A stretch of 64,000 bases of DNA. Source: an uncultured Christensenella sp. (lineage in GTDB: Bacteria > Bacillota > Clostridia > Christensenellales > UBA1242). Position 1 is the first letter of the stretch. Every line of letters begins with the position of its first letter. Made by a program: the position numbers and the translations under genes. Under the pieces are notes generated by a model. It saw only the letters and a program-made list of their open reading frames with translations. It searched no databases and was not told the origin of the DNA. Positions 41,674-45,768 of the stretch are shown piece by piece. The DNA lies in the NCBI GenBank assembly GCA_964579205.1, contig CAZOFH010000003.1, forward strand, positions 18,975 to 82,974. The letters are read 5' to 3'.

Positions 41674-41702
41674 TTGACAAATTCGCAAAAATGTTGCATA
41701 AT
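41674..41702 (+). promoter_or_regulatory. Sigma-A promoter of the RT; predicted +1 near the ATG
   Basis: TTGACA (41674-79), 17 bp spacer, CATAAT (41697-702); ATG at 41709. Confidence 0.7.
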
Positions 41703-41708
41703 TGGGGT

Positions 41709-42863
41709 ATGATAAAAGATAAGTTTGAAGACGTCTTTTCTCTAAAAAATTTGTATGAGGCGCATATTCGGGGTAGGCGGGCGAAACGGAGCAAGCGGCC
41801 GATTGTGGTGTATGAGCAGGGGCTACTCCACAATCTGCAGATTATGCTCGATGAGGTGCTGTCGGGCAAGTACAGGGTCAAAAAATATCACGATTTTGCC
41901 GTTTACGAGCCGAAAAAACGCCAAATACAGACGCTTTTGTATCGCGACAGAATTATTCAGCACGTTTTGTGCGACCACTTGATCGCGCCGTATTTTACCC
42001 AGCGCGCCGTCATTGATAATGGCGTTTGTCAGGTCGGCAAGGGGACGCATTTTACCCTCAATCGCCTAGTCGCCAACGCTCGCAAACTCGTCCTCCGCGA
42101 GGGCACAGCTGATTTGTATGTGCTAAAATGCGATATTTTGAAGTATTTTCCCAGCATTCCGCACGCCCAACTCAAGCGCCAAGTTTTGCATCATATCGAG
42201 GACAAGCGCTTGCGCGATTTTGTGGAAATGGTCATCGATAGTTATCACACTGCGCCGAGATATCTCATCGAGCACGGCATTCCGCTGGTCGAGCCGTGCG
42301 GCCCGCACCCGTACAATCCTAGCCTAGTCACCACGGGGCGAGGATTGCCTATAGGCAATCAGACGAGCCAAGTTTTTGGGATGTTTTACCTCGACCCGCT
42401 AGACAGATTTATCAAGGAGCAGTTGCGCGTCAAATGCTATTCGCGGTATATGGATGACTTTATCCTCATTCATCCAGACAAGCAGTTTTTACGGCAGGCG
42501 TTGGTCAAAATCAAAGAATTTTTGGACACGCTCGGGCTACAACTCAACGAAAAAACGAAGATTTTTCCGCTCAAAACGGGCGTCACATATCTAGGTTTTC
42601 GGCTGTATTTTTACCCGTCGGGCAAGGTTGTGCGACGCGTCGTGCCAAAGACGGTCAAGCGCTTTGTGTCGCGTGCAAAACTGATAAATTACGCATTTGC
42701 GCACGGACTAATCAAGGTGCCACGCGTGCAATCGATGCTGTCCGCTTATCACGGTCATCTCAAGCACGGTAATTGCAGAACTCTGGAATTGCGGCTCTTC
42801 AAACTGATAAAAATCAATGAAATTTATTCTCAACAAAAGGCTATTCAAAATGGAATCAACTGA
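41709..42863 (+). CDS. DGR-type reverse transcriptase (384 aa)
   Basis: YEPKKRQI, RDRIIQH, GKGTH, LKCDILKYFPSI, GLPIGNQTSQ (the DGR-type GxxxSQ motif), RYMDD and YLGF; no maturase or endonuclease extension. Confidence 0.93.
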   Translation: MIKDKFEDVFSLKNLYEAHIRGRRAKRSKRPIVVYEQGLLHNLQIMLDEVLSGKYRVKKYHDFAVYEPKKRQIQTLLYRDRIIQHVLCDHLIAPYFTQRAVIDNGVCQVGKGTHFTLNRLVANARKLVLREGTADLYVLKCDILKYFPSIPHAQLKRQVLHHIEDKRLRDFVEMVIDSYHTAPRYLIEHGIPLVEPCGPHPYNPSLVTTGRGLPIGNQTSQVFGMFYLDPLDRFIKEQLRVKCYSRYMDDFILIHPDKQFLRQALVKIKEFLDTLGLQLNEKTKIFPLKTGVTYLGFRLYFYPSGKVVRRVVPKTVKRFVSRAKLINYAFAHGLIKVPRVQSMLSAYHGHLKHGNCRTLELRLFKLIKINEIYSQQKAIQNGIN

Positions 42864-43362
42864 TGATGAACTCAATTTAGACATTACAAAAGATGCGCTC
42901 AGGGTGGTGGCGCGAAAGCCGTTTGTCTTGGAGAGTATCGACCCAAACAAGGATAAAGAAAAGGAAATGGAGGTTTTTACTGCGGCTAAAAAACTTTCTG
43001 AATATATCTTTGTGGTTACCCAAAATGCGCCGTCAAAATTTCGCTGGTCGATTGTGACGCGCCTGCAAAATACTAGCGTCGAGATTATCGAGGCGCTGTA
43101 TCTCGCGAATTTCGAGCGCGGCAACGAGCGGCTGAAATTTCAAAAAACTGCAGGGACCAAGTTGCGCCTGCTCGACCATTATGCCGAGGTGGGGTACAAA
43201 CTCAAACTTTTTCCGTTCAGACGCCTCGGTGTGATAACTAGGTATATCGTCGTCGTCCGCAACTTGCTAGCGGGCTGGACAAAGAGCACTCAGCGATATG
43301 AAAAATTGGCTGAGGAGAAATCTCGAGCATCTACCCAAGACGACGCGGCGAACGATAATTGA
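42850..43362 (+). CDS. avd: Avd-like accessory variability determinant (four-helix bundle)
   Basis: PSKFRWSIVTRLQNTSVEIIEALYLAN...LRLL...LLAGW resembles the bAvd pattern; basic helical protein overlapping the RT stop codon. Confidence 0.8.
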   Translation: MESTDDELNLDITKDALRVVARKPFVLESIDPNKDKEKEMEVFTAAKKLSEYIFVVTQNAPSKFRWSIVTRLQNTSVEIIEALYLANFERGNERLKFQKTAGTKLRLLDHYAEVGYKLKLFPFRRLGVITRYIVVVRNLLAGWTKSTQRYEKLAEEKSRASTQDDAANDN

Positions 43363-43620
43363 TTTTGCTGTCATTCGGGTGTTAGAGAGAAGTGGCAAAA
43401 ACAAAAAAGGACCCACCATATCGCAGGCAAAAAGGAAAATCTTCTGCATATTCGCCGTCTTGCTGCTAGTGAGTCGAAATTTGCGCCCGAGACTCGCTCG
43501 CTACGTCAGGACTCGGACCCCTTCATCCACCTCCGTGACTTCTGCACAGCAGTCCTTGGATATGCTGAATACTGGTCGTGTTGCCGCAGCGCGATTTTTT
43601 GCGCTATGTTCCGCAGCAAT

Positions 43621-43760
43621 TAGGGGGTGAAGCGAGGGGCGTACCGCTTGGCTATTGTTTACATTATTGTTATTATAAGAGGAACCTGAGGGGTTGAGAT
43701 TTTAGCTATTATTTGCATTATTATTGTTCGCAGAGCGCCCCCACGTGTAAACATAAGCAG
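43621..43760 (-). ncRNA. DGR template repeat (TR)
   Basis: Minus strand reads TGG GGG CGC TCT GCG AAC AAT AAT AAT GCA AAT AAT AGC TAA AAT CTC AAC CCC TCA GGT TCC TCT TAT AAT AAC AAT AAT GTA AAC AAT AGC CAA GCG GTA CGC CCC TCG CTT = WGRSANNNNANNS*NLNPSGSSYNNNNVNNSQAVRPSL; 14 AAY codons, an internal stop and a G/C-rich 3' end. Confidence 0.88.
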
Positions 43761-43841
43761 TCACAAACACAAAGTCCGTAGCCCTAAACGGCCGCTCTCG
43801 CAAAACAAAATACAGTTTTGGGTAGGCGGTCGTTCGCTAAT

Positions 43842-43870
43842 ATTTTATTCCTTTTTGCGTCTCTCGTCAA
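43842..43870 (-). promoter_or_regulatory. Dedicated sigma-A promoter for the TR RNA
   Basis: TTGACG (43870-65), 17 bp spacer, TAAAAT (43847-42) on the minus strand, about 100 nt upstream of the TR core. Confidence 0.72.
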
Positions 43871-44049
43871 CTGCTTTTTGTTACTTTCCGTGGCTCGTAT
43901 GTCAAAATTTTTCGGTTAAATTGGCTTTTGTGTGGGCGTCGGCTCGCTAATATTTTTTTATAATTTTTCGCTACTATCGGATTGCTCAAGAATTGGCAAA
44001 TTTTTTGCGGTCGACTATTAGATAGGTAGCAAGACACAAAAGCGAAACA

Positions 44050-44077
44050 AAAAGAAGACCTTGCGAGGTCTTCTTTT
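44050..44077. terminator. Terminator of glnS
   Basis: aaaagaagacct-tgcg-aggtcttctttt perfect 12-bp stem. Confidence 0.9.
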
Positions 44078-44082
44078 GATAA

Positions 44083-45768
44083 TTATTTGTTAAAAGAATC
44101 CTTGAGTCCGATAGTTTTGTTAAAAACTAGGCGGTCAGCAGTACTGTCCTTGTCGACGCAGTAGTAGCCTTTACGGACGAATTGGAACACGCGCCCCACT
44201 TCAGCACCCAGCACAAAATTTTCTGCCAGCGCCTCCGTTTCGGTGAGCGATTGCGGGTCAAAAATCTCGTCAATCGTCGTGCCGTTAGCCAACGCCTTGG
44301 CTGGCTCGAGGTATTCCATTTTTGTTAAATTGCCGATTTCGCGAATAGTCACGCGAGTAAAATTACCCTCGGCAACAAAGTGAATGGTACCCTTGACCTT
44401 GATGCCGCTGTTGTCGCAGCCGCTGCGAGTCTCAGGCAAGTACTCGCACTCGAGATAGTCGATTTCGCCATTCTCTTTGTACACCACATTGTTGCACTTG
44501 ATGACGTACGCGTTTTTGAGGCGAACCAGCCCGCCCAAGACGAGGCGGTTGTATTTCGCTGGTGGGTTGAGGCTGAAGTCCTCTTTTTCGATATAAACTA
44601 CGCGCCCGAATTGACTCTCGTGAGTGGTTTTCGGCTCGGCGTTCGGATTATTTTCTACCGCAATCGTCTCGTTTGCACCCTCGTAATTTGTGATTACCAC
44701 TTTGAGCGGGTCGAGTACAACCATTGCACGGTCGGCTGTGCGGTTGAGTTCTTCACGAATGTAATAATTTAGGTTTGAGATGGGCAGCACGGTGACCGCT
44801 TTTGTGACTCCGTTGTTCATCACGAAATTTTTGACCGCCGCGGCAGGGATACCCCTTCGCTTCATTCCCACAATCGTGTACAATCTCGGGTCGTCCCAGC
44901 CCATTACTTTGCCACTGTTGACCAGTTGTTTGAGGTAGCGTTTTCCCAAAAGGACATTTTCGATAGCCAATGCCGCGAATTCAATTTGGCGAGGCTTGTA
45001 TTGCAGGTCTGGGAAGCAATTATCCACTATCCAATTATACAGTGGGCGGTGGTCTTCAAAAGAAATGTCGCACATACTGAATGTGATGCCCTCGAGTGCG
45101 TCCTCAATCGGGTGGGCAAAATCATACATCGGATAAATGCACCATTTATCGCCCGTCTTGTAATGCGGTGTGTGCATAATTCGGTAAATAATCGGGTCAC
45201 GCATATTCATATTTGGGCTCGCCATATCGATTTTTAGACGCAGAGTCATACTGCCGTCAGGGTGGATGCCTGCACGCATTTCCTCAAAAAGTCGCAAATT
45301 CTCCTCAATCGGTCTGTCGCGATATGGGCTGTTTTGCCCAGCAGTTTTGAGGTCGCCACGGGTAGCAAAAACCTCGTCCGCCGTCAATTCGCAAGCGAAT
45401 GCCTTGCCCTCTTTTATCAGAGTTTTGGCAATTTCGTAAAACTTCTCAAAATACGCCTCACTCGAATAAATCACATTTTTTGGGGTGTAGCCCAGCCACC
45501 GCAAATCCTCGAGATAACTATCTGCAAAATCGCCGTCTTCCTTTGTAGGATTTGTGTCGTCCATTCTAAGGTTTGTGTAGCCGCCGAATTTTTTTGCCAT
45601 TTCAAAATCCAGTGTCCAAGCCTTGCAGTGTCCAATGTGCCAGTAGCCGCTCGGCTCAGGCGGGCAGCGGGTGATGACCTCGACCTGCTTGCCTGAGCGC
45701 AAATCCTCGATGATTGCCTCCTCGATAAAATTGGTCGGTGTAATATTGTCCAAAATTTCTTTGTTCAT
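44083..45768 (-). CDS. glnS: Glutamine--tRNA ligase
   Basis: PPEPSGYWHIGH, RMDDTNP, NMNMRDPIIYR, WCIYPMYDFAH, GWDDPRL and FQFVRKGYYCVD. Confidence 0.96.
   Translation of the reverse strand: MNKEILDNITPTNFIEEAIIEDLRSGKQVEVITRCPPEPSGYWHIGHCKAWTLDFEMAKKFGGYTNLRMDDTNPTKEDGDFADSYLEDLRWLGYTPKNVIYSSEAYFEKFYEIAKTLIKEGKAFACELTADEVFATRGDLKTAGQNSPYRDRPIEENLRLFEEMRAGIHPDGSMTLRLKIDMASPNMNMRDPIIYRIMHTPHYKTGDKWCIYPMYDFAHPIEDALEGITFSMCDISFEDHRPLYNWIVDNCFPDLQYKPRQIEFAALAIENVLLGKRYLKQLVNSGKVMGWDDPRLYTIVGMKRRGIPAAAVKNFVMNNGVTKAVTVLPISNLNYYIREELNRTADRAMVVLDPLKVVITNYEGANETIAVENNPNAEPKTTHESQFGRVVYIEKEDFSLNPPAKYNRLVLGGLVRLKNAYVIKCNNVVYKENGEIDYLECEYLPETRSGCDNSGIKVKGTIHFVAEGNFTRVTIREIGNLTKMEYLEPAKALANGTTIDEIFDPQSLTETEALAENFVLGAEVGRVFQFVRKGYYCVDKDSTADRLVFNKTIGLKDSFNK

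Follow-up and report, generated by a model that had tools for sequence, protein, structure and literature searches.

The region studied here contains a real diversity-generating retroelement (DGR): its template repeat (TR) runs antisense to RT-avd, and its targets lie at a distance. It lies in a 64-kb stretch of DNA, hereafter the window, which corresponds to positions 18975-82974 of contig C3 (CAZOFH010000003.1) in the 20-contig, 1.14-Mb metagenome assembly (MAG) GCA_964579205.1 of an uncultured gut Clostridia bacterium with a small genome. The reading we favour, to which we give a probability of roughly 80%, is that of a chromosomal DGR with a separate ~430-nt template RNA gene on the minus strand, an inverted version of the RT-avd-TR layout. 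The features of the locus are as follows (window coordinates, strand).

41674..41702, plus: promoter-like site of the RT-avd operon, TTGACA-17-CATAAT, 11/12 consensus
41709..42863, plus: DGR-type reverse transcriptase (RT), 384 aa, with GLPIGNQTSQ and YMDD motifs; Pfam RVT_1, E 2.3e-15
42817..43362, plus: Avd-like accessory gene, overlapping the 3' end of RT; the true start is possibly the ATG at 42850
43842..43870, minus: promoter-like site of the TR cassette, TTGACG (43870-43865), 17-nt spacer, TAAAAT (43847-43842), 10/12, predicting +1 near 43835
43770..43791, minus: 5' leader arm of a long-range duplex bracketing TR (CCGTTTAGGGCTACGGACTTTG), from leader:Sp duplex energies and from single-sequence MFE and centroid folds
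43629..43762, minus: TR, with W codon at 43743, adenine-substituted positions from ~43728 to 43656, and in-frame TAA at 43704-43702
~43646-43629, minus: IMH*-like GC-rich 3' end of TR
43581..43619, minus: stem-loop directly 3' of TR, where the Bordetella phage DGR RNA has its Avd-binding stem-loop
43545..43569, minus: second 3' hairpin (consensus helix 1), 3' of a conserved CCAGTATTC motif; 7 pairs, 5 changed on both sides
43503..43521, minus: 3' (Sp) arm of the long-range duplex, right after an invariant TGAAGGG
43402..43475, minus: 3' terminal domain, a long-range helix (43475-43467 / 43418-43410) around an inner helix, then the U-run 43409-43402
44050..44077, minus: intrinsic terminator of glnS, a bidirectional 12-pair hairpin with a T-run on the minus strand
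44083-45768, minus: glnS, on the TR-sense strand, 320 nt upstream of TR

The minus-strand TR converges on the plus-strand RT and avd genes, both of which have intact reading frames, and no phage genes are present near RT. The first-pass annotation had reported an AAY-rich TR facing the RT-avd operon. This TR is indeed found at 43762->43629, and an AAY-density search near RT returned the minus-strand TR only, with no co-oriented second copy. An adenine-tolerant match, in which template adenines were ignored, was applied to the whole 1.14-Mb assembly and identified four VRs in the same genome, all on other contigs (C1 ~217559, C4 ~116394, C11 ~962 and C18 ~1024), that of C4 lying near a contig end and those of C11 and C18 near contig starts. 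No VR was detected within the 64-kb window by the same sliding match on both strands, and a general repeat finder run on the window returned AT-rich low-complexity families only. Over a 115-nt core, 17 of the 18 mismatches between TR and the C1 VR fall at TR adenines, as do 15 of the 16 that separate TR from the C4, C11 and C18 VRs. Adenine represents 34% of the TR core, the bias having a P of ~1e-7 or lower (hand calculation). The non-A positions are identical between TR and VRs save for one T>G, the two distinct VR alleles carrying one non-A mismatch each. These data demonstrate that TR and VRs differ almost exclusively at TR adenines, and confirm that the locus is a DGR. At the 3' end, TR-VR identity stops after the GC-rich GCGGTACGCCCCTCGCTTC, where TR goes on with ACCCCC and the VRs with TCATAT, and a GC hairpin (GCCGCG-TCTCA-CGCGGC) is located ~20 nt downstream of the C1 VR; these elements would represent the IMH/IMH* boundary and the GC-rich inverted repeat of the system.

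The RT groups with the DGR clade, based on its RVT_1 domain, its GLPIGNQTSQ and YMDD motifs, and the detection of a TR/VR pair for 91 of 160 relatives, the RT relatives aligning with the window RT from residue 1. Among solved structures it is most similar to the 328-aa chain 8ub7_A (E 4e-36), which bears only the label 'Reverse transcriptase' and which we take to be the Bordetella phage bRT. The Avd-like protein has no sequence match among solved structures, and its match to Pfam bAvd (PF22296) reaches 29 bits, under the 40-bit cut-off. Homologues adjoin RT relatives in more than 35 loci (tblastn), most of them with a detected TR/VR pair. The gene next to RT is thus a probable avd, assigned by synteny and a sub-threshold profile match. 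The promoter-like site of the operon ends 6 nt upstream of the RT start codon, such that the RT mRNA may be leaderless; in the relative G015, ~27 nt separate the -10 box of the equivalent site from the start codon.

The intact C1 target is a 707-aa membrane-anchored protein, with the VR in the middle of the protein, followed by Listeria-Bacteroides (Flg_new) repeats. TR itself contains an in-frame TAA (43702-43704, minus strand), at a codon that is TAY (Tyr) in six relatives. The codon derived from it is TCT in the C1 VR and TAG in the C4, C11 and C18 VRs, where it constitutes the sole stop in otherwise long frames, suggesting that the template can write stop codons into its targets and that three of the four targets appear switched off. 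The C4, C11 and C18 paralogues share one identical VR, embedded in an exactly identical ~750-nt block that ends at the VR 3' end. The flanks on both sides have diverged by 5-40%, and none of the three paralogues is more than ~1.1 kb away from a contig end. The block could result from gene conversion with the IMH as its boundary, or be produced by the assembly, with possible collapse of the copies. In G015, a target-like gene (L093:8130-8456) with its own promoter starts ~120 nt past the terminator of the TR cassette, and its N-terminus resembles those of the remote targets of the window genome. The presence of this gene beside the cassette suggests that the remoteness of the targets, as seen in the window genome, is probably a derived state as well.

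Because of the antisense position of TR, the RT-avd mRNA cannot include the template RNA, whose production from a separate minus-strand transcript is well supported by the comparative evidence set out below. The signals that the first-pass annotation had placed around TR were recovered: the TTGACG-17-TAAAAT motif with a +1 near 43835 (10/12 consensus match), the glnS terminator at 44050-44077 (12-pair hairpin and T-run), and, for the announced spacer of about 200 nt leading to a U-rich tract near 43400, a ~225-nt region with a hairpin and a T-run at 43409-43402. The promoter match has to be read against a background of 16 promoter-consensus sites in the 5.2-kb region (7.5 +/- 2.5 in shuffles), so that a single match could be due to chance. 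It is raised above chance by the orthologous locus L001, in which a promoter-like site (TTGACT-16-TATAAT, with a TG-extended -10, 11/12) occupies the aligned position while the sequence further upstream is unrelated. TR and its ~225-nt 3' region share ~68% nucleotide identity between the window and L001/G009, with the same closing T-run, and the flanks are poorly conserved. The terminator scan proposed the hairpin 43428-43411 followed by the T-run, and the comparative helix is 43475-43467 / 43418-43410 followed by the T-run 43409-43402; the 3' terminal domain with its U-run is likely the intrinsic terminator of the TR RNA. From the promoter-like site and the terminal U-run, this RNA is predicted to extend from ~43835 to ~43402, about 430 nt.

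An alternative, which we consider unlikely, is that the TR RNA has no promoter of its own and that read-through from glnS supplies the template, whose supply would then track glnS expression. glnS is suitably placed, on the TR-sense strand and 320 nt upstream of TR, and the TR promoter is a consensus match only, located in an AT-rich spacer. However, the strong glnS terminator stands between the two, and is predicted to insulate the cassette. Moreover, the promoter-like site of L001 is better than that of the window, and is found at the aligned position despite unrelated upstream sequence. Lastly, the co-oriented relatives L002, L003 and L096 have promoter-like sites right before each TR leader, and a terminator after avd. 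These last arrangements suggest that the TR cassette is often autonomous in this clade, in which case its inversion would be harmless. A self-contained, promoter-to-terminator unit of ~430 nt fits the promoter-like site of L001, the covarying duplex and 3' domain described below, and the U-run. A search of RNA-seq runs for the stretch found no run containing it, and a comparison of 43300-44100 with Rfam found no matching family. We also observed a 34-nt direct repeat, 79% identical, at 43813-43846 and 43930-43963 on the minus strand, the first copy overlapping the start region of the TR cassette together with its -10 box. Read on the plus strand, both copies form a weak hairpin followed by a T-run, and might stop RT-avd read-through that has already passed the cassette in antisense.

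Folding and covariation against homologous loci had been put forward as a check of the template RNA. The 3' region is recognizable in the co-oriented relatives G015/L093, G031/L095, L096, L097 and G007/L091, and an RNAalifold consensus of this region, built from six sequences, comprises 32 pairs, 17 of them with compensatory changes, a number reached by none of 500 shuffles. Within the 3' domain, 90% of the cells are paired, compared with 39-49% in slid-partner controls; helices 3 and 4 of the 3' terminal domain account for 20 pairs, 12 of which are changed on both sides, and several invariant G-U pairs fit the TR-sense strand only. A further RNAalifold helix, helix 2, a local GGG...CC hairpin obtained with the 3' region alone, was rejected: it has no compensatory pairs, and it is the pairing of the same segment with the 5' leader that covaries. 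Immediately 3' of TR, folding predicts a hairpin within the first 60 nt in all seven related RNAs, with stem sequences that differ between them. The duplex that brackets TR comprises 14-18 bp, its leader arm following a conserved GGG 35-45 nt upstream of TR. As the leaders are misaligned by MAFFT, this duplex was tested by comparing cognate with non-cognate energies rather than by column counts. Cognate leader:Sp duplexes have a mean energy of -21.5 kcal/mol (-23.7 kcal/mol in the window), versus -12.6 +/- 2.6 kcal/mol for non-cognate combinations, and the cognate partner ranks first in both directions in 7/7 RNAs. The same pairing also occurs when the window RNA is folded by itself, in its MFE as well as its centroid structure. 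Overall, the 436-nt RNA folds with an energy no better than that of shuffles (z = -0.6 on either strand). Taken together, the leader:Sp duplex and the covariation of the 3' domain indicate that one minus-strand RNA spans at least 43791-43503. The stem-loop 3' of TR and the duplex between upstream and downstream sequences correspond to the Avd-binding stem-loop and to the cPRT Stop duplex of the Bordetella phage RNP, respectively. Of 278 DGRs with an Avd, 207 were predicted to have both elements (Handa et al. 2024, bioRxiv 10.1101/2023.10.23.563531).

The orientation of the cassette was then compared among relatives. G009 (= locus L001), from another species of the same genus and from an independent assembly, encodes an RT 70% identical to that of the window and presents the same arrangement, RT, avd, then an inverted TR. 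The close RT relatives share the unusual RT-then-avd order. In nine of them (G007, G010, G015, G031, L002, L003, L096, L097 and L098), TR follows avd on the same strand, and it is inverted in the window, G009 and L004. The RT tree groups the window with G009 (100/100) in a clade that is nested (96/94) among the other DGRs of the genus; the three of these with a locatable TR (G007, G010 and G015) are all co-oriented, and L004 is placed elsewhere. We conclude from this nesting, and from the separate position of L004, that the inversion is derived, that it has been kept across 30% RT divergence and that it arose more than once. The first-pass annotation had asked whether the convergent layout would define a clade among RT homologs: the window and G009 do form one, but L004 acquired the same layout in another part of the tree. 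When a local TR/VR detector was applied to the 160 more distant RT relatives, 90 of the TRs that it located were co-oriented and one (L071) was inverted, this count of 1/91 referring to locally detectable TR/VR pairs, with L001 and L004 being additional cases found by homology. A metagenome scan yielded three further close relatives, with 47-50% identity. The 2.6-kb L001 contig (CAVEBU010000038.1) is filed in an 'Alistipes finegoldii' bin, has both the length and the content of a G009 (Clostridia) contig, and is likely a binning contaminant there.

Some of these loci carry more than one template. L003 contains four promoter-leader-TR units with a spacing of ~235 nt (L003:5620-6810), followed by a single 3' domain, located after the last unit only, which can pair with each of the four leader arms. 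At least two complete TR-Sp-terminator cassettes are present in L096 (L096:4150-4906), a TG-extended -10 box preceding each of them. L004 has two inverted TR copies (L004:6580-7720) in a 3.3-kb stretch without ORFs.

The stop codon in TR invites a second alternative, namely that the inverted TR is a relic, uncoupled from RT-avd by the inversion, and that the targets are no longer diversified. The TAA of TR, the TAG at that codon in three target copies and the single identical VR shared by these copies are all compatible with such a decay. We nevertheless judge it very unlikely. The RT and avd frames are intact, and compensatory changes between the window and L001 maintain the pairing of the RNA helices. 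Each of the two distinct VR alleles departs from the present TR at a single non-A position; as the inversion came before the 30% RT divergence from G009, retrohoming from the inverted TR must be more recent than the inversion. Furthermore, both the TCT of C1 and the TAG found in the other copies go back to the TAA codon now in TR, indicating that retrohoming took place after that TR mutation. Finally, it is hardly credible that the antisense TR is a MAG assembly artefact: the assembly is metagenomic and in 20 contigs, and DGR repeats can mislead assemblers, but the window holds one TR copy without a local repeat to flip it, the independently assembled congener G009 shows the same orientation, and five DNA runs contain 98-100% of the sampled words across the 2.4-kb stretch 41700-44100.

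In the mechanism that we propose for this inverted DGR, RT and Avd would be made from the plus-strand operon, and the template would be supplied by the minus-strand RNA gene, composed of a sigma-70-type promoter, a 5' hairpin and leader, TR, a stem-loop, a 3' spacer-like domain and an intrinsic terminator. The leader would pair with the 3' region across TR, resembling the duplex by which cDNA synthesis is halted on the DGR RNA of the Bordetella phage. The RT-Avd complex would bind this RNA in trans and copy TR with errors at adenines, and the resulting cDNA would be written into at least four genes elsewhere in the genome that encode surface proteins with Listeria-Bacteroides repeats. The strand of TR, the adenine-specific TR/VR pattern, the remote targets, the conservation and covariation of the RNA elements and the inversion relative to congeners are demonstrated; the use of the promoter and of the terminator, the assembly of the RNP in trans and current activity are inferred. 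The two promoters might also be regulated separately, as proposed in the first-pass annotation.

A broader proposal, which we advance tentatively and at less than even odds, concerns the RT-avd clade of gut Clostridia as a whole. The template in this clade might be an autonomous promoter-leader-TR-Sp-terminator cassette behaving as a movable module, which can be inverted (window, G009, L004) or arranged in tandem (L003, L096), so that one RT-Avd pair could be fed by several independently regulated templates; the TAA of the window TR would then allow retrohoming to switch targets off as well as to diversify them.

These loci provide a clean natural experiment: within one genus, the RT-avd pair stays the same and the TR cassette faces one way or the other. 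Covariation of the leader:spacer duplex and of the 3' domain extends over the two orientations, supporting the view of the DGR RNA as a self-contained unit acting in trans. This is the design of recent reconstitutions in E. coli, in which a TR-RNA expressed from its own promoter works in trans (PMC12875486). The locus also offers a compact and well-delimited Bacillota DGR RNA of ~430 nt for structural or engineering work, and the template stop codon and the tandem-TR relatives are points possibly worth the attention of DGR specialists.

With regard to known systems, the first-pass annotation had combined two proposals, a separate template RNA and an undescribed architecture. The separate antisense RNA is well supported by the comparative evidence, whereas the layout had been published in 2012, 2018 and 2019, and its novelty falls, even though it is catalogued as rare rather than common. 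Schillinger et al. 2012 defined 'inverted' DGRs as Group 4 and concluded that the mRNA for RT and the RNA serving as template need not form one transcriptional unit (PMC3521204). Wu et al. 2018 describe DGRs with TR and RT on different strands (PMC5758913). In Yan et al. 2019, an RT inverted relative to the canonical VR-TR-RT cassette (G1) constitutes pattern G5, more than 20 times rarer than the canonical pattern (PMC6642488). The antisense TR, exotic beside the textbook phage cassette, is thus a published rare layout, and the main value of the locus is one of calibration.

Compared with the phage prototype, the BPP-1 DGR (mtd-avd-TR-Sp-brt, whose bRT-Avd RNP contains an avd-TR-Sp RNA; Handa et al. 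2018, PMC6182149; Handa et al. 2024), the window shares an RT homologous to bRT, an Avd-like partner, adenine-specific transfer from TR to VR, a GC-rich, IMH-like 3' boundary, a stem-loop immediately 3' of TR and a long-range duplex joining sequence upstream of TR with sequence downstream of it. In BPP-1, these elements belong to one co-oriented operon, in which the TR leader is the 3' end of avd and the spacer runs into brt. By contrast, the template of the window appears to be a stand-alone, convergent RNA gene whose leader is non-coding and which has a promoter-like site and a putative terminator of its own; the protein genes are in the RT-avd order, and the targets are cellular and remote, with a VR in mid-protein followed by Flg_new repeats. 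In chromosomal DGRs with remote targets (Treponema denticola; Lineage 4 of Wu et al. 2018), one TR likewise serves several remote paralogous surface-protein genes, with no phage genes nearby; T. denticola has an HRDC accessory gene and a co-oriented TR (Wu et al. 2018; PMC4891356), whereas the window has an Avd-like gene and an inverted TR.

The closest counterparts are the inverted DGRs of Group 4 and G5, in which, as here, TR and RT lie on opposite strands and would be expressed as separate transcripts, the other DGR features being standard. In the three examples of Schillinger et al., TR, VR and target gene lie together, opposite to the RT strand, whereas only the TR-RNA cassette is flipped in the window, with no VR or target adjacent to TR on its strand and all four VRs on other contigs. 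Furthermore, avd stays with RT, in the RT-then-avd order, and the inversion can be polarised as derived within the genus and recurrent, given L004. We conclude that the architecture and its mechanistic implication were already known, and that the window differs from these inverted DGRs in detail only: avd remains with RT, the RNA cassette alone is flipped, and the targets are remote.
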